The translations under genes and the position numbers were made by a program. A DNA stretch of 64,000 nucleotides from Raillietiella orientalis. Lineage: Eukaryota. The stretch covers positions 5,394,001-5,458,000 of the forward strand of contig JAYWIR010000006.1 in assembly GCA_036172245.1 (NCBI GenBank), in the 5' to 3' direction. Each line of letters begins with the position of its first letter. Positions within the stretch are counted from its first letter, which is position 1. Positions 3,704 through 44,630 of this stretch are shown piece after piece. The notes under the pieces are model-generated. The model worked only from the letters and a program-made list of their open reading frames with translations. It had not been told where the DNA came from and made no database searches.

Positions 3704-4542
3704 ATGGCAACAGCACAGAGTCAGTCAAAAGAAGATAAAGACAATGAGGAAAAAAGTATGGATAGTTTTGATTGTAATATTTGCCTAGACACGGTTAAAG
3801 ACGCAGTTGTCAGTTACTGCGGCCATTTATTCTGGTAAGGGTTAGTTCTGCAGGTAACCCCTATGAAATTTATTTTTATTTTTGCGTACAAATCATTTAA
3901 TTTAAGTTTTATAAAAGTTGACAATGAGTTTGAGTGCGGACAGTCTATAAAATGCATATTGCTTACTCACCAGTTGGTGCATTTATCGATTTGTTTTTGT
4001 GATTATCCATTGCTCTTCTGAGATTAATATTTACTTGTAGAAGCCAAAATATTCTGGCCTCTGATTCATTAGTAATCTGTGCAGATTTGGGGAATACAGC
4101 TCTAGTGTTTTTCAGTTGGCCATGCTTGTATCAATGGATAGAAATTTCGAACAAAAAAGTATGCCCTGTATGCAAAGCAGGTATCAGCAGAAATCAAGTG
4201 ATTCCTTTGTACAGCAGAGGAGATACAGAAAGAAAAGACCCACGAGATAAGCTACCACCTAGACCTGCAGGTCAAAGAACAGAGCCTGAAAACAGTTCTG
4301 TAAGTTTATTTGTGCCACATGAATGACGTATCTTGTAGACTTCCCAAGGCTTGTTTTCAGATACAGGATTGCAAATGTTTCTGGGAATTGGAGCATTTCC
4401 CATTACATTTTTTGTTTCATCATTCAATCTTGGAGGCAGAAATACTAATACTAATGATCCAGATGGACAACAAGATCAGTTTCTCAATAAGATTTTTTTC
4501 CTTATAGCCTTTGTATTTTTAATTTGGTTACTGTTTGTATAA
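3704..4542 (+). CDS. RNF5: RNF5/RNF185-type C3HC4 RING E3 ubiquitin ligase with C-terminal hydrophobic anchor (~172 aa; exons 3704-3834, 4116-4299, 4339-4542)
   Basis: The spliced product contains [30 protein letters not shown]...[20 protein letters not shown]...[24 protein letters not shown] and [25 protein letters not shown] introns; exon lengths sum to a multiple of 3. Confidence 0.93.
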
Positions 4543-6899
4543 CATATTATTGATAGTTATACATAAATAGAAAAAGATTGAATCAAGTTCGAAATTATTT
4601 TTTTTCATCTAGAATATTTGATGGATATCTCTACAAACTGTCTGTGTGAAATCATTTTAAAAAGAGAACTTCTTGGAACATTACCCAACGAAATTATCAA
4701 GTATTTTAAGTAACTGGAATGCAGATTGAAATTATTTTGCCTGCTCAGTCATTTTCATTAGGAACTTTTGGAAGGCTGTCTGATAATCTGAACCATTTTC
4801 TAAAATGTGTGACCCCAAAATGTATGATTGAAAACTTCAACCAGATCTTTAATTCATTGCAACGTTTGGCCTTTAAAACATATAAGAGCATGCAAGGTAA
4901 AACCATGTCATCAAGCTATTCACCAAGATTGAACTGATACATGATCAAACATTTGTATCTTGACAAGAAACTTTGTTTCTCAATGTTTCTATGTGCAAAG
5001 TGTTTTAAAAAACTGTTCTTCAGTGAATCTCATTGGAAATTTTATAATCTAACAAGAATCATGGCCTGATCACGATCATAAGTAAATCTTATAACAAAAG
5101 AGAAGTGCAAACCCCATTTTTGAGCCATTTTTTGGTGTTAACTAGAATTCTGAATAAAACGAATGCCAACTGCAAACGGTTTCGTATTTATTAAATAACA
5201 TATCAGCAAACTGGGTATTTTGGATAATTTCTGATGCTTCCGTTCCAGTTTCTATCGCAGTTACATAAAGAAGTCTCAGTTATTACAAAATACAACTTCA
5301 GAATCATTAACGAAAACCTAGATGTTTGAATTAAAGCTATTCTGCAAATCTGTTTACAGAAGTGTTGTACTTCATGCCCCAATAACTGAAAATAAATACC
5401 CACCTATTCCGATTATATGCACACATATATATACGCATATAATCCATACTCTTTATATACATGCGGACAAAAAAAACACTTAATAGCTAAAGTACTCGCA
5501 AATAAACGAAAAAATACCGAACCGTACAGCAAAAACGATGCATTATCGACGGTGCTATTGATTTTAAAATGCCGAGTAACAGGTGCTGTACCTTGCTACT
5601 ATGTCACAAAGCGTGAACGCCCCCAAAGCAACATGGTCGTCACAATGACACATGGCGATGCTACAAAGTTTCTACATTTCCTCAAATCACTTGAGACATT
5701 CACAAAATTACTCTTGCATTCAACAACGGGCTAACTCAGGCATTCGAGGCAAGTTGATTAAGTTAAAGCACTTTCTAATGATGCACAAAACACTATATTG
5801 GCTTGCTTACCAACTTCTCGGATGTTAGAGTTGCCAAACGGTAATTGGGAAACTATGTAATCCTCAAGTTACACTAACTTTGTAGAACAAAACCTCCCTT
5901 TAACGCCCGTAACTATAAAGCAAAGTTTTCATGATATTTTTAGGACGATCCTATCTCATTTAATGCAATTCATTGGACACATATCTCTGAATATAAACTC
6001 TGAGATTTTCAGTATTAAGGGAACTCAAAAATGAGCTCAGTCGAATGATTTGGAATTGAGCAAAGCGAGAAGAAAAAGAAATATTTCGACACAGAATGCT
6101 TCTTCACGCTAACTGGGCAGAAATAATTCTAATTCTCCATTTTTGAGAAACTGGCTTTGAAAAATAATTCTCACATAATCAGAAGGTAAAACTTTCACTC
6201 AAGTATCAAGAAATGTTCTATCTTGTAACTTACATAAACAGTAGCGATATATTTTCATTGCTTCCCGTTAAATGTAACTATTTTCCTTAGATTGGTAGCA
6301 TTCGAATTGTAACTCTTGGTGTAAGGAACATTGCTTAACATCAGGAGAAAAGCTATCATTTGATTGCCTGAACTGATGGATTGATTACTCCAAAAATCCT
6401 CATGAAACACAAAATGTACTGTGCTTAGTTTATTTATTAATTTTTCCTTAATAAATGGACATTTTTTTTTTTTTGGTTGGAGTTGTTTCCCTTTTCCAAA
6501 AAACACTTATCAGGAATTCTGAGTTTCTCCTAAAGCTAGTCTCCACTTTTTTCAAGCACCTTTAAAGAACGTATCATATAATTTTAACTTTTTTTCAAGA
6601 CATTCGACTTGTTCAGAGTAAAGAGAGATGGACTTTTTTAAAAAAACACACACACACGCATTTTTTTCCAAAAGAATTTTTCAGTTAATAAACAGAATTC
6701 CTCTGAATTTTTCCATCAGTTTCATTTTTACCAACAAAATATTGTAACCGTAAATGTTTCCAAGCGTGCACACAAAATAATTATCCTGAGGCACTTGACT
6801 ATTTTTCAGTTTCATCATTCTCCTCTGCAGAAAAGGAATTCTATCGAAAGTATTTCAGAGGTACAAATCAAATTCTTAACGAGCATGAAATGTGAATAC

Positions 6900-16572: not shown

Positions 16573-16640
16573 GTGTGTGTGTGTGTGTGTGTGTTTGTGT
16601 GTTTGTGTGTGTATACGTATATGTGTATGTATATATATAT

Positions 16641-16679
<39 letters not shown>

Positions 16680-19849: not shown

Positions 19850-20800
19850 GTCAGTATTGGCCACGAATCGTTTTGTTTTTGACTCGTTTCCTAGTCATAG
19901 TGACGGACAAGCCGAGGTGCGTGGCGTGGTAGGACAGCTCGAGTAGCAGTAGTAGTGCACGCACCACTTCTGAAAGTAGCGAATGGTGGTGAACACTGAC
20001 GGAGCGTGAATGTTGTCTTGAAAGTGCAGCCGGGCGAATTGTGAATGAGTGCGTGAACGGATCCCAAAATGGAATGACAAAGGCAAGTCGCAAAAATACT
20101 TTTTAAAACGTCGTCGCTTTGGGGTGCGCAGCTCCAATGACTTCAGTCCTGCAGAGCTGCGTAGAATGCAGTGTGCCTCGCCATCCATAACGAGGGTTCT
20201 TCGAGAATCGTCGGTACGCGAGTCGAGCACCCCGGAGGTGTTCCGTCTGCTGCTACCCTGCTGGTGTGCTTCGGATGCTCGAGTGATGCGCGCGGCTGTA
20301 CCTCGTTTTTGTCTTCCCCTTCCTCCTCCTCCTCCTCCGAGTGTGCCGTTTCACGCAGCAAGGTTAACGATCCCGGCGAAACCGTGACTTCCCGCATTCG
20401 GGTTTGGCTAGGCGGAACCATCAGGAAAGAAAGGTCTTCCAGGCAGGCGCTGCGCCGGCGTCGGGAACGGTTGCATCCACGGGATCACCGGAGAGGATCG
20501 GGCGCACGTCTTCCTCCGCGTGCTCCTGGCGAAAGGGACGTCGTTGAATCGCATCCCCCTCGCTCTCTTCCAGCCCAGCGCGCCCGTCGCTCCGGGCGCG
20601 CAATCCACCGAAAGTGGGAACGGCTTTCAGACGAGCGACGTGAGCTCGCGATCGAGTGGACTTGGAAAAGCGTGGAGTTCAGCTCCGAGTCCGTACGTGT
20701 TGGGAAATTGCAGACCGCTTTGTTGTTTCGAAGTGCCGCGCAACTCGGGCTGTTGCGAAGGCCGGCTGTGCAGAACTAAGTGGTCACTGCCTGGTTCACA
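19850..20800 (-). mobile_element. Decayed non-LTR retrotransposon RT fragment
   Basis: GC/CpG-rich. Ordered minus-strand remnants: SSPVIP, APQSDDVLKSIF (like VPQGSVLSPLLF), YFCDLP (like YINDLP), LHFQDNI (like LFADDI) and HLGLSVTMTRK. Confidence 0.45.
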
Positions 20801-21849
20801 TTCGGATAGGTTTTTTTTTTTTCTCTCTCTTTCAAAAGCTGCTGCTTTGATTTATTTTCCATGGACCAATGGAGCAAAGGGACTGTCTCTCCTCGAGCAA
20901 GGCTAATGGTATGGCTGCGTTAGCGGTTGTTGCTCTTTCTCCGGTTGCGTCGGGGTCCGTTATTGACGGTTGTCTTCATCCCTGCGCTTCTTCCCTTTTC
21001 GGTTCAAGTACCGATACCACGCCTACGCGAAAACACGTGACGAGTCCTGTAGCAAATTCGGCCCCATCCTGAAGCGCCGCTCCTCGGCTGGCGAGCGGCG
21101 GCGCTGCGCTGCGCCGTAGCGTTTGGGCGAAACCCTGCGGCGCTCGTCGATAAGTTCCCTATTGATTAAATTATCTTCTTCTGCACACTTCGCTCAGAAG
21201 AGGTCTTCGCCCAGTTTTCCGAAGGCAACCCCGGAAGGTCCTGGATCGTCGCTTTGTGTGCGCGCTTTCTGTTTCTTTTTCTTTCCCTTGCTTTTTCCTT
21301 TGTAAGGGGATGTTCGAACGCGGTTGGGAGCTACCCGGCCGACCTCCCCGTGTGTACAGTCGGATGAAGCGGATGGTGGATGGGATCGGATCCCCTGCGG
21401 GGATCGTTGGTTACCTCGGTAGTTGACAGCTCCCGTTCGTCGGGCCTTCACCGTGGCCACCCTGTCAGACTCCGAGAAGTGATTCGAAGTCGAATCCCTT
21501 CGATTCGGCAAAGGCCCCCCTGTGGCTCCCTTTCCCGTTTTGGCTGCATCTTGTTTGCCGGGAAATTCCGAATGGGATTGCGATCCCTATCGTCGCATTC
21601 GCTCCGGAAAACGGTGAAAGAAGAGCACGGCACTTCCTCGGGCCACGCGCAGCCCTCCAAAAAAAGTCCAGTGGGAGCAAGCTGATCGCGGGCAAAAAAC
21701 GATCCTGAAGAGGTTGCACGAGTAGAGGTCGCGGAAAGATGTGCTTTGCATCGTCACACCCGAAGCGGGTCGCGGTGTGAGGCGCGTAGGTGGGTGAGGT
21801 GACGAGCGGGAGGAGGGAGGGGAATTCACGCTAACGGACTCGCGTAGCA

Positions 21850-22880
21850 GTGGTGTGCACGCCTTTTCGCGGCAGCTGGAACGTACTGACCGACGCGACT
21901 CAGGGGAAGGGGAGAAGCAAAATCGTGGGGTCATCAGTCGGCTCTTCGCTCGAGGTCGCAGAAACCAAGTCCACACGTTGCACAAGCGGCAGCGGTGACG
22001 ACGTGGGGATTCCTCAGGACTGGGATCTCCAGGAGCCTAAAAATGCTGCCCGTGCCACGCGCCTCATTCCGTTTTCCAACTCTCTCTGTATCCTCCCCCT
22101 ACCCCGCTTCGTAGAGAATTCAAGGTCGTCTCATAGCATCGTGACCCAAAGCGACTTCCGCATTTTCCAATTTCCAAAATCCTCCTTTCGAATCCCTGCA
22201 CCTGCGGAGGGAGGGACCTCGGTCACCACGGTTCCATGCGCTTCCGCGTTCTCGTGCACGATCTTCTCAAGGGATAGAAGCGGCGAATGATCCCGGCTTT
22301 CAAACCCCCGTCCGGGGGCGCCATCAGAGGGAGACGAGGTGCCCAACCACGCGCATCTCGGGCGTACGGCGGGTGTTCTGTTTGCCAGACGGGCACCGTG
22401 GGTCGCAGAAGTGGCGCTATCCGTTTGTATCTTCCTTGCCCTCGGCATATGGAACGAATTTTCGGTCTCCCGTTCGAAACTCGCAACTGGGCTGCGTGGG
22501 ACTTCGAAACGGGCTGGTTGGATGGCAGCAAGGAACGCGCGAAACCGAGGCGCGGTGCACCGCCATCCTTGCGTTGGACCCGTGGTGGACGCGAACCGAC
22601 CGTCGAGCCTCCGCTTCAGGTATTCCCATCCACCTCGGTCAGGAGGCAGTCCATCCCGAGCAAGAGGAAACACAGTGTCGAAGAACTGCGGCAAGGTGGG
22701 AGAGAAACCACGTGTGGCAGTAAGGCGGGTCCTGTCGACAGTGTCCCGTTACCGCAGGAGGAAGGCTCCTGCTTCGAGTTCGCGCGCGTTTCAGCAGGAC
22801 GCGTGCTGGAAAGACCGACCCGCGAAAGCGAGGGAGCGCACCCCCGTTGGCTGTTGCTGTTCCTCTCCCGCTGGTGAGGT
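21850..22880 (+). mobile_element. GC-rich probable LINE relic (possible APE-endonuclease N-terminus)
   Basis: PFRGSWNVL...LEVAETKS resembles the xGSWNV...ETK motifs of LINE endonucleases. The remainder is uninterpretable. Confidence 0.3.
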
Positions 22881-22924
22881 CAGGGTAGCGCCACTAGAAG
22901 GTGGTTCCTGACTGGGTCACGCCG

Positions 22925-25900
22925 GGAGTTTATTCTAAAAAATAAAATAAATCTTAACAACAAAAGTACAAAATAACACTGATTCGGCAAGTCACCGAGG
23001 ATGTAGCTGCTGGGAGCAGCCTCCGGAAGAGGACCACACAAGGTGAAACAAAGAATAAACAAGCAAAAAAAGTTTCGAGACGTTTGGAAAGGAGGGAGGG
23101 GGGGAAGGCATCACAGAGTTCTCCCTGGCGTCCCTTGCATCCTCTCAAAGATGCCGGCAAGCACCCCCTGGTTGCGTGTCAGGTGCGACCGTCCCGCCTC
23201 AGTCCTCAGGAAGGAGAAGGCGAGGGAGGCAGTGGCGTCCACCTCTACCGTCGGAGCTTCGGGTCGCCTCGATTCCGCGGACGAAGCAGGAAGCTGCGGC
23301 AGGCGACGTGGCGCCATGCATCGGGCCTTCACACGCGTGGGGAGGTGTCTGAATAGGGCCTTCGGGTGGTATGCTGGAAAGTCGAGGGACTTCCCGCGCA
23401 CAAGAGGGAGCAACCCATTCGAAAAGCAGGTGTTGGTTGACACCTCCCTCTGGGGAAGATCGCATCTCGAGTATCGGAAGCGCGCTTCTCCCTTCAGAGA
23501 AATTGGGAAGCGTCCCTTCGGGGTTCTTTTCGGAGGATGAGGAAATCACGAGTGGATCCTTTCCTGTAAGTCGGTCCCTCCGAAGAAGAAATGAGGAAGA
23601 GGGTTTCTTCGGGGTTCCCTTCGTAGACAACCAGGACCACAGTTGGCAACCCCAGGGAGCCTGTAAAAATCCTCTTCGCGGGGAATGCCCTACCACCAGC
23701 CGCAACCTCAGCAGCTCCTTGCTGCGTCCTCGGGGATGTGGCGTCCTGCAGCAGCGCTAAAGAAGGAGCGTACGAGAGAGACGCCGTCCAGCATGCAGTT
23801 CGCTTTCTGCGGATAGCAGCCAGATGCCCTCATCTGGTTGCAATCAGGACCGATCTAGCCGGCATCCTGGAAAAGATGCGGAAGATGACCTCCAGCAGGC
23901 CGTGATCCTTTCCTGGCTCTCCCATTTTTTGTGTGTGTTTTTATTTCATGAACTCTCTTTCCCTCCTTCCCTCTCTACCCCTTTGTTTTCCCCCTCCCCT
24001 CCGTTGCCGAGGTGACCCTTGCCGGTCTGTGGACTGGCAGCCTAGAGGATCCAAGGGCAAATCGAGCGTGGTCGTACCACGCGCCCCACCACGATTTGTG
24101 AGTTTTTTTCAACTTCAACAAACGCCCCGGCGCGCCCGGGTGGAACTCGGAGACAACCAGAGCGAGGGTTCCCTTCGGGATTCCCTCTCAAACATAAGAG
24201 AGGAACGGGCCGCTTCCTCAGGAGCTCTTCCTGGATTCAAAGGGTGTTTCCTCCCGGGCTACCCCCTACAGCGCGAAAGACTCCCTCGGGCAGAGTGGGC
24301 GATTCCTAAAGAGCTCTGCAAGTCCCCCCTAAGGGGGAGGAGAGCGGTTCTCCGGCAACCCCTGATAACCGGAAAGAAGGGAACCTGGAAAGCAGGTGGG
24401 GGCGAGGTGTCCCTTCCGCGGTCCCTGACCACGGTCCGGGGTTGTGCCGCACCTGGTCCAGCTACGGAGGCTGGCGTTGCGCAGCAGTGGCGACGCCGCG
24501 TCTTGCCACTTCGGAGGGAGGAAGGAGCCGTCGAAGGACGCCTCGAGGATGTCCTCTTCGCCCAGCGGGATTTCAAGGTGGTCCATCGAACGGGAAAGCT
24601 CTTCGAGGGTGAAGGGTGGCGGGGGGGGAGCACTGCCCAGCATCCCCGGCCTTCTTCCTGCGACCTCGCAGTTTCCTGACCGTCCCGCAGGGGCAACGGC
24701 GTCGCGGCGAGAAGGACTCGCTGGCCCCACAGGATCATCCCCGAGAGCCAGTCCAGCATGTCCTCCAATGAGCAGCGGGACCCTCCTCCGCCCCCCCATC
24801 TTCGATCCGCTTTCCGTTTCCGCCGCAGTCCGCCATCCAGCAGATCTGGGCGTGGTCTTGAGCCATGGCAACCGTGTGGCCGGAACCGGCCGCCCACTTG
24901 GCGCTGTTCCGTACCAGAGGTCTCCCCGAAACTTCGCCCCTAGGGATGTTCCCCACCGGCGCTTCCACGTGGACGAGACCCTGGCATCTCCTGGCCGGTT
25001 GCTCCACAGGAACTGCGGGTACTTCCGACCGCAGTCATGCAGCGCTTTCCCGGGAGTCTCGGAACCTCTTCCGACCGTTGCCATGGGGACCCGTCGAAGG
25101 CGGAGTTTCTGACGCGCCTCAACCATCGCAATCGGGATGTCACGCGGCGAGACACCGGACTCCCCCGTCCCTCCTGCTCGTCTTCCCCGCCCCGGGCGTC
25201 TCCTGAGGGACGCGCCGCGGAAGGGGGCAGTGGGTCTTTTCCAGGCTGCCGCTTCCCGAGGAACCCCTCGGGAACGAGTCTCGGTGAGGACTCTCCTCCC
25301 AGGACCGTCCTCCACCGACATCCCCCTCCCCCGGGGGCGAGCAGACGCGGGAGAGATCAGGCATCGAACCCCGGAGTTCGAGCTGTACCTCTCTCCCTAG
25401 GTCATCTGAGGTCAAACCCTGTGAGCCTCGGCACACTCGTTGATGCCGCCGCCTCAGCTCAGCTCGCGAGGCAGCTGCCTCCAGCTCATCTCCCTCGGCC
25501 CGTTCTGTACCTTTCCGCCTCGTCCCTCCTCTGCCCCTTCCCCGGGAGTCGGCGTACAGAGGCCGCCTCCAGCACCGCTCGCGGTCTGGCTGGTCGGGCC
25601 CTCCGGCGTATCACCTCCGGTGCTTCCGCTCCCTGTCGGCCAGCCGAGAAAACTTCCGCTTCGCGGTCTCGGGGCCCGCCCCAGGCACGCTGCAACTACG
25701 AGCGACGCCTCGAGGAGCGGAGAGCGCCGCCGCCGCAGCGTGCGCCAAGCTTCTCCCCCCCCCCCCCAGCTCTCTCCTTCGCACGCGTTCGGTTTCTTTT
25801 TTGTTCGTGGATCGCCCTCCTTTTGGTCCACCAGAGCTTTCAGTCTGCTCTTCCGGTCCAGATGCGCGTTCGGACCTGCTTCGAACTGCGCAGCGAAAAC

Positions 25901-26270
25901 CTGCCGTAACTCCCTTGGCTGAGCGCGGAGGCCGGGGGCAGGAGAGGAGGCTCGCGGTAGCGGAGGGGGGCAGGGAGCGGGGAGAAGTTCCGAGGATCTC
26001 CCCGCTCGGAGGCGCGCGGAAGTCTCGGAGGGCGAAATTTCCTTTCCGACGAGAAGATTTTTGCTCGGGTGCGGCGGCGGGGAACACCAAGAAAGGCGGC
26101 CGGCTGCAGAGATCCGCGGAGCGGGCGCGGGATAGCGAACGTGCGGTGTTGCGTTTCGTGGTCATGGCAACGGTCGGGCACGGGCGGCGGGGGTGTCCGT
26201 TTGCCGCGAGAGGCCGCGTCTCCGCTGCAAGAAGTGTGCTCCAGATCGCAACGAATCCGAATCACCACAC
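22925..26270 (-). mobile_element. Decayed L1/Tx1-like element (host copy 1): RT relic, ORF2 C-terminus interrupted by a ~40-nt minisatellite, and 3' UTR
   Basis: Minus-strand order: TASLLSC..TAGFR, RGVARSCSVP (like RGVRQGCPLSP), PLYADS (like LYADD), SRRDGGVRCL, FLPPKWQDAASPLL...WTRCG, [repeat], HLLFEW, AASCFVRGIEAT, LAGIFERMQ..*. The C-terminal parts align by eye with the 43.4-44.6 kb ORF. Confidence 0.7.
23635..24150 (+). mobile_element. 5'-truncated L1/Tx1-like insertion (516 bp) with target-site duplication AGACAACCAG
   Basis: Direct repeat AGACAACCAG at 23625-23634 and 24151-24160. The insert reads without frameshift as TTVGNPREPVKILFAGNALPPAATSAAPCCVLGDVASCSSAKEGAYERDAVQHAVRFLRIAARCPHLVAIRTDLAGILEKMRKMTSSRP*. 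This is homologous to the end of the 43404-44618 ORF and is followed by the family 3' UTR. Confidence 0.85.
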
Positions 26271-26274
26271 TGCT

Positions 26275-26490
26275 TTTTCTTTTCACCTCTCTTTTTTCTT
26301 CTTCTTCTTCCTTTTCTTTTTTTTTTTTTTTTTTCCTCTCCTTTTTTTTTTTTTTTTTTTTTCGCGTCATGTGGATGCTCTTTCACATTTCACCGGTTCA
26401 ACTCGAGCAGGAATTGAGCTCAAACTGGTGGCACAAAAGAGACAAGTAAAAAAAAGAAAAAAAAAAAATGAATGAATGAAAAAAAAAAAC
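26275..26490. repeat. Poly(T)/CT-rich tract followed by poly(A) tracts
   Basis: Homopolymer runs visible directly in the sequence. Confidence 0.85.
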
Positions 26491-28039
26491 GATCATCTTT
26501 TATTAAACGACATCCGCATGTATGCAAAAGACATGAAACAAAATAATGAACAGCAAAAGGATCTCAATTCCAAGGGAAGCCCTGGCCACGAGCTATCCCT
26601 CAGTTGAAGCCTTTCCGCCTCCCTGAATCCTCGAGAGGATTCAACGTATCATTCATCTCTAGGCATAAATTGTTCTCCTTGTTTGCAATTGGAGAGGCTC
26701 AGTAAATTATGAATATCAGTACGCTTTACTACAAATGCAATAAAGCGTAATGATGTTCATAATTTAATAAAGCGTCATAATATTCGGTGAAGCACAGCAA
26801 AAAAATTAATTCTTCGTCCACCAGTCAACCCCCGCACTTGGATCGGAAAACAAAAGCGGTTGGGCAAACCGGTGGGGATCCCCAGAGCTTGAACCGCTCC
26901 GGCTGATCCGGGAATCCATCTGAATGAGGTCCCCCCATTGCCCCCCCCCCATGTCCCCAGTGCAAGCTCATCGGGGCTAGATGGTGGTGCGTGAGAGACG
27001 AAGATTTGGCTGCGGGGAATTTCCATTCCCGCCCTTCGTTTGCTTCCTTTTCAGGGGTTGGTCCACGCCGTCATCCTCGACTTGTTTGTCCATTTCCTGA
27101 CCCTCCCACCCTGTCGAGTTTTCAACTCCTGGGGCATTCGTTTGTCTTTCCTTCTTTTTTTGAATTGGCCAAGTACCTCAAGGACCACCGCGCGCCTGGC
27201 GGCCCACGCAGCTCTTTAGCACGTTGACTGCCACGCCCGACTTGCATGAGGGCTCTCAGGGGGCCACAAAAGAATTTTCAGCATTCTAAGCACAGGTAAT
27301 GACAAAATAATAAGAAATGTGGTCATATAAGATCATGCCCTTATCCATCGTGCGTTTCTCTTGCAAGTGGTCACGGGTGACCACCGTGGCCCCCTTGATG
27401 CACTCAGTTTCTCTTCATTACTTTTTTTTTGAATACTTTCCTACAAGTACCAGAAAACGACCATCTACGGCGTTCACGTGGAACGGTGTACACCTCGGAA
27501 GGTATCGTAGCAACCGTAACAAACAACCCTTCATTTCTTTTGACAAATATGTCCTCATTAGCTGGGGTGGCAAGGATCGTGAGAAAATCGTGAGAAAGCG
27601 TTGCGCAGGACATTAGTCAATAGTGTTCGTTCATTTCTGTAATAATAAGGGTTGTGCATACTACCACCTTAGATTTTAGATTATAGAGCTATATTTACGA
27701 TTATTTTGTGAAGTGTTGTTCATAGATTACTCCTCAAAGATATGGATACAAACGATGGCCAGCTCATTTATGCTTCAAATGTTTTAATACAGTACAACAC
27801 ACTTAATTTTTGTAATACAATAGATAATGTTTCCATTAAAGTCTTTAATTGTTGAATATTGCATTTTTTAATTTCAGAACATTGTCTAGTTAGCAATGAT
27901 GTTCCAAATTTTATAGTTGACGATGTTCATTTTATGTTAATCATTCTAAACACTTGAGGCACTCTGGTCACTGATGATCACCGTAGCCCCATCGAGGAAA
28001 AAATCTCCGGTCACAGTTGACCAACGTGACAGTCAACCT

Positions 28040-29780
28040 GTTAACGCCGTTCCACGCTACCCAGGGGTGCGTGTTGACTCTTCAGGTCAAAGAATGCCCA
28101 GAAGGACCACCCTATGAATCCAGAAAGGGCCCCGGAGGAGGAAGTCCTGTTCCTCTTGCGCTTATTCATGTAAAAAGAAACCCACAAGTCGCTGGAGAGA
28201 CTCTTGGTCCTGCCGCGTGACAAAGGTAACCATGGAGACCTGACGAGAACCGGCGCACAGACCAGCCAGGTTCGCCTCGGCAGCAGAGGGGGAGGGGAAG
28301 CAACGAAAAAAGAAAAAGAAAACAAAAAATATAAATACATTGGAAAAAATCTGGAGCGTTTGGGAAGGGATCACCGGGTGCTGGAGGGGGTCCTCTGCAT
28401 CCTTTCCAAGATGCCGGCAAGTTCCTCCTGCTTCTGGATTCCCAGATGAGGCCATCTCGACGGTGCCCTCAACGAAGAGATAAGCAAAATGGATGGCGTC
28501 CCTGGTCTTCTCTGGCGCCGCTCCAGGCCACAGCGATCCCGCGTAACGAGCAGAGTCCTGCTAAGGATGCGTCCGGAGTGAGGGCGTCGCGCAGGAAGAG
28601 GCGCTTTGAAAATGGGGTTGCCCTCGGGATTGTTCCGCAGGGACGCGGCAAAGCTTTCCCAGAATGGCCGCAGGGCAGGCAACACAACCCACAAGCAGGT
28701 GCGGGAAGGACTCTCTCTCGCCGCACCTGCTGCAGTTCGGACTCACTCCTCCCCCGGGATCAGGGTTGTCGGCGGACGTTTCACGGGAGACCCCCACGCA
28801 ACAGCAAGATCACCGACTCCGCCGCTTTACGAGGAGGAAGCTGCTGTTCCAGAACACCGGGGGCGCTTCTCCTGGCAGCTATCCCCAGTATGGCAGTCCT
28901 TTGGGTGGGACAGTCAGCGTCCTTCAGCTCCTAAGTTGTCCACGCGCCCAGAAGTTTCTTTTTATTGTCTGTGTTGCACTCACTTCCCACACACCGTCTC
29001 TTACATCAGTCTCTTGCGCTTAATAGGGAGGAACCCCAGAGGGAACCTCTTCTTTGTTCTCTCCAGAAGGAACCCGTAAGGGAACTGCTTCCTGTTTCCT
29101 CCTCTGAAGAGAACTTCGAAGGGACGCTCCCTGATTTTCTCTGAAGGGCGCTCCCCGAAGAGAGCAGAGCACCACTTCACACTCTGGATAGATATCAATC
29201 CATCAGCTCCATGGTACGAGTAGGCGATTCTTAAAGACCTCCTACCCCCGAAGTGGTAAGACGCGGCGTCGCGACTGCTGAGCAACGCCAGCCTCCGCAG
29301 CTGGACCAGGTGCGGCACGGCCCCGGACTGTGACCAGGGACCGCGGAAGGGACACCTTGCCCCCACCTGCTTTCCAGGTTCTCTTCTTTCCGGTTATCAG
29401 GGGTTGCCGGAGAACCGCTAGCCTCCATTTAGGGGGGACTTGCAGAGCTCTTTAAGAATCGCCCACTCCGCCCGAGGGAGTCTTTCGCGCTGTAGGGGCC
29501 AGCCCGGGAGGAAACACCCTTTGAATCCAGGAAGAGCTCCTGAGGAAGCGGCTCGTTGCTCTCTTATGTTTGGAAGGGAACTCCGAAGGGAACCCTCACC
29601 CTTATTTCTCTCTGGAGGGACCCCGAAGGGAGCAGCGCTCTTCTGACACGGCGGGGAAGTGGCCCCCTGAGGAAGGTATCAACCAGCCCGAGGTTCGCTA
29701 TGGTACCATGGGGTGGCTCCATTTTCACAACCGCAGGGAAACCCCCAAAGACTCTTTGATGTTCAGGAAGTCCAGAGGTT
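28040..29780 (+). mobile_element. Two tandem partial copies of the minisatellite-bearing host element (about 28040-29240, interrupted by an insertion, and 29225-29780)
   Basis: 29243-29602 is the reverse complement of about 24160-24520 at roughly 90% identity by eye, and reads LLPPKW*DAASRLLSNASLRSWTRCG on +. Joining 28090-28164 to 29023-29160 reproduces 29500-29640. Confidence 0.75.
28165..29010 (-). mobile_element. 5'-truncated L1/Tx1-like insertion (846 bp) with 12-bp target-site duplication CTCTTGCGCTTA
   Basis: Direct repeat CTCTTGCGCTTA at 28153-28164 and 29011-29022. With frameshifts the insert encodes KKLLGAWTT*ELKDA, zinc knuckle CSRCGERESFPHLLVGC, LRPFWESF and RWPHLGIQKQEELAGILERMQ..*, followed by the family 3' UTR. 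Confidence 0.85.
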
Positions 29781-30879
29781 CGACTTCCGATCCCGGTCAG
29801 TCATCGGGGTCGGGGCGGACTCTCTCCGTGGACACCCTGCTTTCGCTCCAGCGACGGGGGTGCGAAAGAAGCGAAACGTCCCAGGATTTGTCCCATTTCA
29901 CTGTGTGCAGCAACCGAAGACTGGTTAGGACAGAGCAGAGAGTTCCAGAGGGACAGGACTCGACCGTCTTCAGGGTTGCATCGGAAGAAACGGAAGTGCG
30001 TCTACAGTTCCGATGTTGTCGAATGAGCACAGGAAACTGTATCCCGTGGACCATCCCCCTGGGGTGCAGTTTTTTGTATTCGTTCGGCAAGATGAGGGTC
30101 TCTGTGGGTACTCTTGAGGGAAGAGGGCGAAGGCAGCTCCGATGAGCTCAAGTGATCTGCGGTTTACAGGGAGTGATGGTCGGTTTGGTGGATCCGCAAA
30201 GAGTGCTGATCCAGGTAACATGAAATCTGAAATGCCTTCTGGGGATGCAGGTGAAAGGCATAACTTCCACTTGAGTGTATACCACCGGAGTGTTCAAGAT
30301 CGTCGAACGAGGATCCGTGCACGTCGAACAAATAAGCCCGATTGGGTAAACATTCTGGAAGAAAATGCTAGTCGAAACTTTTATTCGCTTGAAAGAAATC
30401 ATTCCAAGAGCAAAAAGCGACGTGATACAAAATTATCCTGCCTCGTAGTAGGAATTCGATTGGTTATTTCAATCTGAATATTCAATATTTCAATCTACCG
30501 GTGGAGAGGGAAGTCCCTGAGATTCAAAAACAGATCCGAAACTTTAACCTATAACAGGCAACAGTCCTGTTATAGGTGATGGCGCCCGAAAGCACCAATG
30601 ACAGCAACCGGTTTGAAAGGTTTGTTTCACAATGAGTTCTTGTTCGACCTAGGTGAAATAAGAGTAAAGGAACCTATTCTAGCAAGCACTCTTTGTTGGA
30701 ATTTGTAGTGTTACCAAATATATCAGGCTGTATTGGTGACCAGTGCCCAAATCGAAAGCAATCTTGCCTTTCCCAAACGTTCATCGCCACATTAAAGAGT
30801 GAGACATATGAGAAACTCAATGGCTCGTGAAACAGCTGAGGCAGAAAAAGTTTCGCTGGAATGAGTTTGGACAACTCCA

Positions 30880-43109: not shown

Positions 43110-44630
43110 TAAATATGTGCGCTCGAGACTTTCGGGCGCTGTTGATGACATTCTGGGAGCGGGTAAGAAAACTCGGTGAAGCAGCTATGAAGACAGAAGA
43201 GAAGCGGATCGACGGGAGGTTGACACCCGGGTACGCCCGGGGCGTTTGTTAAAAAAACTCTACATCCGCGGTACAAGGCCCCGCTCACGGCCATATGCAC
43301 GGGACCTGCCGGGACGCCGGGACGCAGCCCGGCGTAGCGTTCCTCAGCAGCGAAGGGGGATGGGGATAAAACAAAAAGAAGTTGGAGGGCAGGGAAGGGA
43401 TCACTACTCGCTGTGAGGAGGGCCCATCCGTTGAAGGAAGCCCTCGAGGTCCATCCGCATATTCCCCAGTTGGGGCCATCTGGCAACTCTCCGCATGAAG
43501 CGTTGGGCATATAGGATGACATCCCTCGCGTGTGGACCCACTCCTTCGTTGTTGGCGTCGCTCCATGCCGCCACGATGCCTCGGACGCAGCACAAGGCTG
43601 CGAGGGCTGCGACTGGCTGCAGGGCGTCCTTCACGAAGAGGGGCCAAAGAACGTCTCTGGGGGTGCTGCCCGTAGGGAGCCCGAGGGTCGTCCCGAACCG
43701 TTCCCAAAGGGGTCGGAGGGCAGCACAGTCCACAATAAGGTGGGAGAGCGATTCCCGCTCTCCGCACCTGGCCCACTCAGGATCCACAGCTCCCCTTGTC
43801 CAGTGGAAGCGGCGTGCGTTGCAGGGTAAACCCCAGTGCAACAGCAGCAACGCCGACTCTTGCCACTTAAGGGGCAGGATCCTGGATTCCTTGAGCACCG
43901 GGGGCCACTTCAGCACATCCACAGGGATGGCGAGCAGCTCGCCCCATCTGTTCAATCCTTGCGGCTGGACGCTCGGGGTCGTGGCGTCCGCCAGTTCTCC
44001 TGTAGTCCAGCCGCTCAATAACTTCTCCCTGCCTGCGATCCGGCAGGAGACTTGCCACCTCGGCTTCTGGCGGCCGTGAAGCGCCCTCTGGAGGTAGGGC
44101 ATCTCCGTAGCAAGGGGGTCGTCTCCGCCCACATGCGACTCGCGGGAAATTCGAGTATTTCCCGCAGGGTGCGGTGGGAGTATGGGCCGTGACGCAGGCA
44201 GTTCATCGGATCTTCGCACCTCCGGTTTTGCTCGGCCCAGGTGCCAGCAGTCTCCTCCAGCCAGGCGGAGGAGTTGGCGGGGCCACAAACCATCCAGCCG
44301 TTCTCCTTCACCAGGGTTGCCATGCGCCCGAGCAGTAGGCCGCATCTTCGAATCTTCCGGCCAGGGCACAGAAGAAACGACGCGAGTCCTTCGCACCGGG
44401 ACACACGCCAGGCGAGGAGGCGGGCCGGAATGCACCAAGGGGTGCTCCACATCTTCGCTGCGATGGCGAGGGTTCGCCACCGCAGCTAGATTTCCATGCG
44501 CTCCAGCGTCAGGAGGCTGAGACCGCCGTCCCGACGCAGAGCGCACAAGTCCTTCAAAGGGACTCGAGGCCTCCCCTTGCCCCAAAGGGCGATGCGGAGG
44601 AGGGAAAGCGGAATGCATCGAATTAATTTT
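43110..44630 (-). mobile_element. 5'-truncated L1/Tx1-clade retrotransposon: ORF2 C-terminal ~400 codons plus 3' UTR (best-preserved copy in the window)
   Basis: IALWGKGRPRVPLKDLCALRRDGGLSLL (LWxG..R..LC...GGL post-RT motif), then a frameshift into the long 43404-44618 frame with KWQESALLLLHWGLP and ARCGERESLSHLIVDCAALRPLW. The 3' UTR is shared with the 23.6 and 28.2 kb copies. No convincing TSD was found. Confidence 0.85.

Follow-up and report, generated by a model that had tools for sequence, protein, structure and literature searches.

Several long interspersed nuclear elements (LINEs) insert into fixed targets. According to the accessible text of PMC4494074, Tx1L resides in Tx1D of Xenopus, Tx1-Mar in Mariner-N4_AMi, Tx1-8_Crp and Tx1-4_AMi in long terminal repeat (LTR) elements and Tx1-9_AMi in Harbinger. 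The targets of Dewa, Keno and Mutsu are given in the available parts of PMC3706591 and PMC4494074 as the spacer of a transfer RNA (tRNA) array, U2 small nuclear RNA and 5S ribosomal RNA, respectively. Zepp and ZeppL, members of the L1 clade in green algae, nest in their own copies and form arrays, as described in the accessible portion of PMC8226300. Here we analyze a 64,000-nucleotide stretch of Raillietiella orientalis DNA (contig JAYWIR010000006.1; hereafter the window), which is part of a 210-Mb eukaryotic assembly against which the genome searches were run. The window carries two 5′-truncated LINEs, insert 1 and insert 2, in two copies of a dispersed repeat that resembles a short interspersed nuclear element (SINE). 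The lineage of insert 1 (lineage B) is very probably a real target-specific LINE that homes, in the sense orientation and by target-primed reverse transcription, to a fixed position in this abundant, tRNA-headed SINE.

When relatives of insert 1 were collected by sequence alone (best 40 of 795 candidates scored, 30 loci fetched), the SINE was found directly at the 3′ junction in 12 of 29, or in 11 of 28 (39%) after removal of one duplicate. The corresponding similarity samples of the insert 2 family and of the family of a third LINE copy in the window (family A) gave 0/29 each. A 22-nt motif from the LINE 3′ end has 152 matches in the genome (control, 0); among the 70 best-matching loci, a sense SINE adjoins the 3′ junction in 62, corresponding to 57 of 64 (89%) without 6 near-duplicates, and an antisense SINE in none. 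The difference from the insert 2 family (57/64 versus 0/29) has a Fisher p of 8e-18, and both 39% and 89% exceed the value that the accessible text of PMC4494074 uses to define a target-specific family, one target in >20% of flanks. The junction lies at position 570 of the SINE model in 34 of the 57 loci, and most others lie at 571-579 or at the equivalent place in neighboring repeat units (~490, ~531). The 5′ half of the SINE is also present at the 5′ junction in 38 of the 57. Inserts in the motif-picked set are 135-1022 nt long, and locus L103 contains a ~5.7-kb element with open reading frames (ORFs) 1 and 2 between two SINE halves. Among 43 loci selected because both flanks are present, the 5′ breakpoints are scattered over model positions 1-936 and across the whole 3′ 1.4 kb, with only L181 and L215 sharing one, and a second copy of the target head closes about 25 of them, as judged by eye. 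An AATAAA signal precedes the SINE junction by ~30 nt. The copies are old, with a median pairwise identity of 73% (maximum, 84%) among the 43 inserts and ~85% identity to the majority sequence; L099 and L103 retain decayed ORF1, endonuclease (EN) and reverse transcriptase (RT) regions. Two LINE copies on one contig (L096:6515-7760 and L102:1492-2737) are 95% identical, one being SINE-flanked and the other not, and a long near-perfect hairpin occurs in the LINE 3′ untranslated region (UTR) at L175:1592-1659.

Judging from its sequence organization, the target is probably a SINE-like element of the SINE2 type. A search with the sequence originally regarded as an empty copy yielded 498 candidates, of which 40 were scored, and alignment of 28 of these sequences revealed a dispersed ~860-bp element whose ends are common to the copies. 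In the orientation of the inserts, it has a sharp 5′ end, a tRNA-like head, several ~40-nt units in the middle of the body and an A-rich 3′ part with a variable end. The head motif has 2,789 matches in the genome (control, 0), and a B box within one mismatch is present in 34 of 51 heads. ARAGORN at a relaxed score on whole loci returned only noise, and Tandem Repeats Finder did not call the ~40-nt units as an array because they are too diverged. Retroposition is indicated by a 10-bp target-site duplication (TSD) around the copy that received insert 1 (T1); no convincing TSD was found in 7 near-complete old copies. Sense SINE DNA amounts to at least ~0.6% of the genome, and the element is missing from full-length family A copies. 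The possibility that the repeat is a LINE 5′ UTR or a set of terminal inverted repeats was rejected, as it occurs around the full-length element in L103 solely as flanking sequence in a single orientation, and the repeat carries a tRNA-like head at one end and an A-rich tail at the other. Because the target motif without a LINE has 2,672 matches in the genome (control, 4), most target sites are empty; by eye, the main motif is present in about 11-13 of 28 SINE copies that are unfilled at the site. At the last unit before CCAAGCG, these unfilled copies (L033-L060) are of two types, one with and one without the motif-bearing unit (~11-13 versus 13 of 28, by eye). A third SINE site is seen at L037:1177-2640, where a sense LINE fragment splits a SINE at model position ~690-700.

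Several observations weigh against homing to a tRNA-headed SINE. Only 70 of the 152 motif matches were examined, best-matching first, and the 22-nt motif ends in CGG, which may be derived from the target, so that 57/64 is slightly circular and the unbiased figure is 11/28. In the subclade containing insert 1, 8 of 16 rows are SINE-flanked and 8 of 16 are not; either specificity is not absolute or flanks have been lost. The SINE 5′ half is absent from the fetched DNA in 19 of the 57 SINE-flanked loci, some of which may be 3′ transductions. A loose TSD script was positive in 22 of 38 loci but also in 2 of 7 SINE-negative loci. Insert 1 itself, despite its exact 10-bp TSD, is one of the most divergent copies relative to the group majority (74%), and its best match in the genome search is only 76% identical, not a close relative. 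No intact lineage B ORF2 was seen among these copies, and the lineage is now decayed in the window. As for the head, a 76-nt cloverleaf in the consensus of 42 heads is reported by ARAGORN at 85% of its threshold and disappears at 90 or 100%, which makes the case for a tRNA origin moderate, and Rfam searches of 12 loci and of one stretch with a head, all single copies, gave no tRNA match.

The window is a nested pile in which an old LINE (LINE H) came first, the SINE entered it second, in antisense and with a 10-bp TSD, and insert 1 entered the SINE third; the right flank of the pile has also been duplicated locally, in inverted orientation. Its parts are as follows.
22905..23422, minus strand: LINE H (old), 3′ part with the ORF2 C-terminus and 3′ UTR, ending at the clade terminus AATAAA...CCCGGCGTGACC; 76% DNA match to insert 2, terminus motif, 83% match to the relative L111/L144.
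23423..23432, plus strand: left TSD AAAGCAGGTG formed when the SINE entered LINE H.
23433..23624, plus strand: SINE copy T1, 5′ part, 5′-truncated and headless, with ~40-nt units; SINE profile match 23393-23636 to model 342-585.
23625..23634, plus strand: left TSD of insert 1, main target motif; 10 bp exact, or 13 bp from 23622 with one mismatch.
23635..24150, plus strand: insert 1, 5′-truncated LINE of the SINE-homing group, ORF2 C-terminus and 3′ UTR; tblastn match to the ORF2 of the 43-kb copy (43% over 83 aa, E 2e-12); groups with SINE-flanked copies.
24151..24160, plus strand: right TSD of insert 1; exact word repeat.
24161..24388, plus strand: SINE copy T1, 3′ part; profile match 24147-24410 to model 570-857.
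24389..24398, plus strand: right TSD AAAGCAGGTG formed when the SINE entered LINE H.
24399..25230, minus strand: LINE H, decayed upstream part of ORF2 (post-RT region to zinc finger), with an approximate 5′ limit; weak tblastn similarity (25% over 312 columns, pairwise E 1e-5), a tblastx match to L111 and no Pfam match.
28042..28152, minus strand: SINE copy T2, 3′ part; profile match to model 614-741.
28153..28164, minus strand: 3′-side TSD of insert 2, the first 7 nt (minus strand) of which match the AATAAACG region of the LINE family (microhomology).
28165..29010, minus strand: insert 2, 5′-truncated member of a dispersed LINE family that does not home; ~25 nt are missing from the family 3′ end.
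29011..29022, minus strand: 5′-side TSD of insert 2.
29023..29239, minus strand: SINE copy T2, 5′ part, 5′-truncated, without the main target motif; profile match to model 358-625, and alignment.
29240..29597, minus strand: inverted duplicate (92%, 331/359) of 24164-24522, comprising the SINE 3′ part and ~125 bp of LINE H ORF2; third copy of the AAAGCAGGTG TSD word at 29364.
29598..29810, minus strand: SINE 5′ part (model 233-443) joined to the duplicate, the two together forming T3; profile match, and alignment.
43219..44630, minus strand: copy of family A (a younger sister), 5′-truncated, outside the SINE and outside any other LINE.

T1 lies antisense within the zinc-finger region of LINE H and, because it has its own TSD AAAGCAGGTG at both edges (23423, 24389), entered LINE H as an insertion of its own. 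The arrangement of LINE H and SINE is seen again in the relative L111, in which ORF2 residues 478-1085 lie upstream of the same SINE junction. The original prediction that the window holds two independent insertions with TSDs is borne out, as the window contains exactly two occurrences each of AGACAACCAG (23625, 24151) and CTCTTGCGCTTA (28153, 29011). The former duplication grows to 13 bp with one mismatch (23622-23634 and 24148-24160), and the last 3 nt of insert 1 may belong to it. The two inserts are indeed separate events, with different 5′ ends, different families and two different copies of the same repeat, and their sites are, as had been noticed, about one repeat unit apart (~39-43 nt in repeat coordinates). 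The ORF2 C-terminal homology likewise stands, as both inserts encode a C-terminus related to that of the 43-kb copy, which was correctly placed outside the target. A misassembly or a single duplicated event is rejected, since the inserts belong to separate clades and their SINE hosts are plainly distinct copies. The supposed empty copy at 29500-29640 does match the same repeat, yet it consists of the 92% inverted duplicate of 24164-24522 and the 5′ part of another SINE, and lacks the main target motif. This joined 5′ part is the portion absent from T1, and the whole would be a product of local recombination.

Elsewhere in the window, 25230-26290 and 19900-22850 are GC- and CpG-rich and have long open frames, with no family match where tested; a DNA search of the genome with 24523-26300 returned only itself and one T-rich match, and Pfam found nothing significant in ten window ORFs. 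Positions 4516-4677 and 7216-7054 form an inverted pair (165 bp, 85%), and two short palindromes lie at 16573-16675 and 26703-26766. Outside the window, SINE copies adjoin LINE zinc-finger regions in antisense, as T1 does, at L043:1114-2019 and L111:6000-7500, and the SINE itself may favor LINE ORF2.

Insert 2 is an opportunistic hit by a dispersed sister family, one unit downstream and in the other SINE copy, T2. When its relatives were scored (best 40 of 2,998 candidates), none of the 29 assessed at the 3′ junction was flanked by the SINE, which falls below the >20% of flanks that defines a target-specific family. Their flanks are unrelated by eye, and several have TSDs in unrelated sequence. 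Insert 2 and its relatives form a clade of their own with support 99 (27 rows, those in which the 3′ end was found), so that the two inserts do not belong to one family as had been assumed. Because insert 2 lacks ~25 nt of the family terminus and joins its target at a 7-nt microhomology with one mismatch, the data suggest that it was internally primed. Another LINE, in L112, has a TSD at nearly the same second SINE position, and a weak secondary preference for this site is possible.

The SINE junctions of lineage B might be inherited rather than targeted, if the 3′ third of the SINE were in fact 3′ UTR of the LINE, giving the SINE a LINE-derived tail, or had been carried along by 3′ transduction from a single ancestral insertion. 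SINEs commonly have a 3′ tail in common with a partner LINE, according to the accessible part of PMC5786205, and the 19 of 57 loci in which no SINE 5′ half was fetched include L099, which is near full length and in which no SINE was found upstream. However, the SINE 5′ half is present in 38 of the 57 at differing LINE truncation points, many loci closing in a second copy of the target head; moreover, sister families end at the same terminus without a SINE, and the AATAAA signal lies ~30 nt ahead of the junction. Inheritance is thereby already weakened and, while it may still explain a minority of copies, is very unlikely to account for the lineage. It is extremely unlikely that a few SINE-LINE composites were amplified as units, by the SINE promoter or by segmental duplication, which would make the loci non-independent. 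Although 6 of 70 junctions are near-identical, L181 and L215 have a common 5′ junction and the LINE H-SINE arrangement recurs in L111, the 5′ breakpoints are widely spread and the 43 inserts have a median pairwise identity of 73% (maximum, 84%). In addition, the LINE 3′ UTR contains T runs of 5-7 nt, which should stop RNA polymerase III and therefore argue against full read-through of composites by this enzyme. Chimeras could also arise without insertion into SINE DNA, if reverse transcription switched template between LINE and SINE RNA, and one-sided chimeras do exist, with a SINE 5′ half, the LINE and an unrelated flank (L029/L100). A colinear SINE on both sides would need two switches and would have no target duplication, whereas both window inserts have exact TSDs, and the probability left to this route is almost nil.

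The original prediction proposed that one family, with both inserts as members, targets in antisense a minisatellite in the ORF2 of a sister LINE, giving sense/antisense chimeras. The ~40-nt units and the one-unit spacing are real, the LINE in L112 has its TSD at the second site, and insert 1 does sit antisense in a decayed ORF2, but it does so at second hand, through the antisense T1 in LINE H, and T2 lies outside any ORF2. The presumed minisatellite-bearing ORF2 is actually the dispersed SINE-like element with several ~40-nt units in its body: the units are part of a free-standing element with sharp common ends that is absent from full-length family A copies and entered LINE H with its own TSD. 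Both inserts are sense to this element, which does not fit systematic sense/antisense chimeras. Since, in addition, the insert 2 family is found in the SINE in 0/29 cases, the proposal is refuted as stated and retains scarcely any likelihood. The idea of a target-specific L1/Tx1-like family inside another mobile element survives for the lineage of insert 1 (57/64; 11/28) and fails for insert 2 (0/29). The original pair consists of one true homing member and one stray insertion, with the host misread. Self-targeting in antisense within ORF2, which does not apply to inserts 1 and 2, is found instead in family A, the relatives of the 43-kb copy (11/28 at ORF2 codon 311).

Besides the 43-kb copy, 29 family A loci were fetched, and the 3′ end was found in 28. 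The 3′ flank lies within another LINE of the clade in 26 of the 28: 11 are antisense and in register at ORF2 codon 311, 7 are at one ORF1 site, 5 are at the 5′ UTR and 3 are elsewhere. The codon-311 site (L070, L071, L072, L077, L081, L082, L085 and L088-L091) is located between the EN and RT domains, in targets 65-95% identical to the reference. The ORF1-site group may represent amplified array units rather than independent events. No SINE was found at the junction of any of 29 family A loci, and the lineage B 3′ terminus also ends family A and the insert 2 family, without a SINE. Searches for TSDs of family A, LINE H and the 43-kb copy found mostly nothing within the fetched DNA. Family A copies are arrayed head to tail in L093, L094 and L095, where two different types of ORF1 are seen together with nested fragments and ORF2 frames 1,034-1,115 codons long. 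Many family A matches come from short contigs or lie close to a contig end, as might be expected of a Zepp-like cluster. The last bases of the 3′ end vary by sub-lineage and track the target (GTAAAC then CTCC; GGCAAC then GCCGAA; GGAAAT then CGGAG), and CCCT(C/T) precedes both the SINE site and the ORF2 site.

By its predicted domains, the clade is assigned to the APE-type (apurinic/apyrimidinic endonuclease) non-LTR retrotransposons of the L1/Tx1 group, having EN and RT in ORF2, 5′ truncation, a retained 3′ end (insert 2 excepted) and TSDs. In family A, ORF2 matches PF03372 (AP endonuclease; E 3.8e-10) and PF00078 (RT; E 2.6e-20), and its best solved relative is human L1 ORF2p (E 6e-47); the best RT entry outside L1 reaches 6e-12, and entries named R2 reach 9e-9. 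CCHC knuckles in ORF1 and a C-terminal CCHC-type motif in ORF2 are visible in the translations; Pfam zf-CCHC scored E 0.023, below the cut-off, and zf-RVT was unmatched. In an RT tree built without an authentic Tx1 reference, the elements of this genome group with P0001 on a single long branch (clade support 1.0), no sister of this clade is resolved among the ~140 library RTs, and none of the 20 library RTs looked up by name is named Tx1. RT identity to library proteins is at most about 40%, except for P0001 and the fragment P0010 (71-72%); the named neighbors are uncharacterized proteins of turtle, pseudoscorpion, ticks, frog and Closterium, and a word-indexed protein search gave 6 matches, one of them close.

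In target-primed reverse transcription, the bottom strand is nicked, and here the primer would end opposite CGG, overlapping the LINE terminus GGAAAT(CGG). From the junction position, orientation, TSDs and varied truncations observed in lineage B and the EN, RT and CCHC anatomy of its clade, homing can be pictured as follows. The L1/Tx1-like, APE-type LINE very probably inserted at TTCCCTY/CGGAGACAACCAGGG in the SINE body, in the sense orientation of the SINE in every case seen, with short TSDs and a variable 5′ truncation; insert 1 is one such event. Because position and orientation are fixed, the site is probably recognized in sequence by the endonuclease, with help from pairing between RNA and target. 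The endonuclease would also use weaker sites at the same place in neighboring ~40-nt units, and site choice would be sharpened as the RNA 3′ end pairs with the nicked target through the CGG overlap. Longer read-through tails from donors inside a SINE would perhaps add further pairing. The SINE, with about 2,700 copies, would be a safe landing pad. A wider and rather doubtful conjecture is that a single LINE radiation has split into sub-lineages, each homing to a different fixed retroelement site (SINE body, ORF2 linker in antisense, ORF1, 5′ UTR), with homing set jointly by the endonuclease and a target-matching 3′ RNA tail. In its boldest form, the SINE would be the lineage's own passenger turned landing pad, read-through SINE tails of donors would direct new copies to the donor's own position in the SINE, and the ~40-nt units, all of which begin at a usable site, would be traces of repeated rounds of cutting and duplication.

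This genome holds close sister lineages that differ in their fixed targets, and some of them have ORF2 frames of >1,000 codons. They offer a natural series in which to study how the endonuclease and the RNA 3′ end of a LINE switch target, a question that bears on targeted gene insertion. A LINE aimed at a fixed position in a tRNA-headed SINE was not found in the literature surveyed by title and start of abstract, a survey that did not extend to Repbase Reports and most subscription papers, and the supplementary target figures of PMC4494074 could list SINE targets. The target resembles SINE2 elements in its tRNA-like head and B box, unrelated body, A-rich 3′ region, thousands of dispersed copies and 5′-truncated copies with a TSD, but differs in its variable 3′ end and, by eye, in having no tail in common with the LINE termini. 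Family A, and only family A, resembles Zepp in nesting in existing LINE copies (26/28) and in forming arrays; family A differs in using several fixed sites, one of them antisense at ORF2 codon 311. Lineage B is similar to Dewa, Keno and Mutsu in its sequence-specific insertion into a multicopy target tied to a small-RNA gene, although their targets are functional RNA genes or spacers, whereas the lineage B site belongs to a dispersed retroposon and lies ~550 nt downstream of its decayed tRNA-like head. The closest likeness in habit is to Tx1L and Tx1-Mar, since lineage B is an APE-type LINE with a fixed position and orientation per site within another dispersed mobile element, and its copies (~85% to the majority) are similar in age to those of Tx1-Mar (85-87% in the accessible text of PMC4494074). 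It differs from the Tx1 elements in that the RT of its clade joins no named clade in the tree, which included no authentic Tx1 reference, and in that its target is the body of a tRNA-headed SINE and not a DNA transposon or LTR element. The known targets of site-specific APE-type LINEs are RNA genes, microsatellites and DNA or LTR transposons, among which the body of a SINE is unusual; the homing habit of lineage B is thus a known one, and it is the landing pad that is out of the ordinary.

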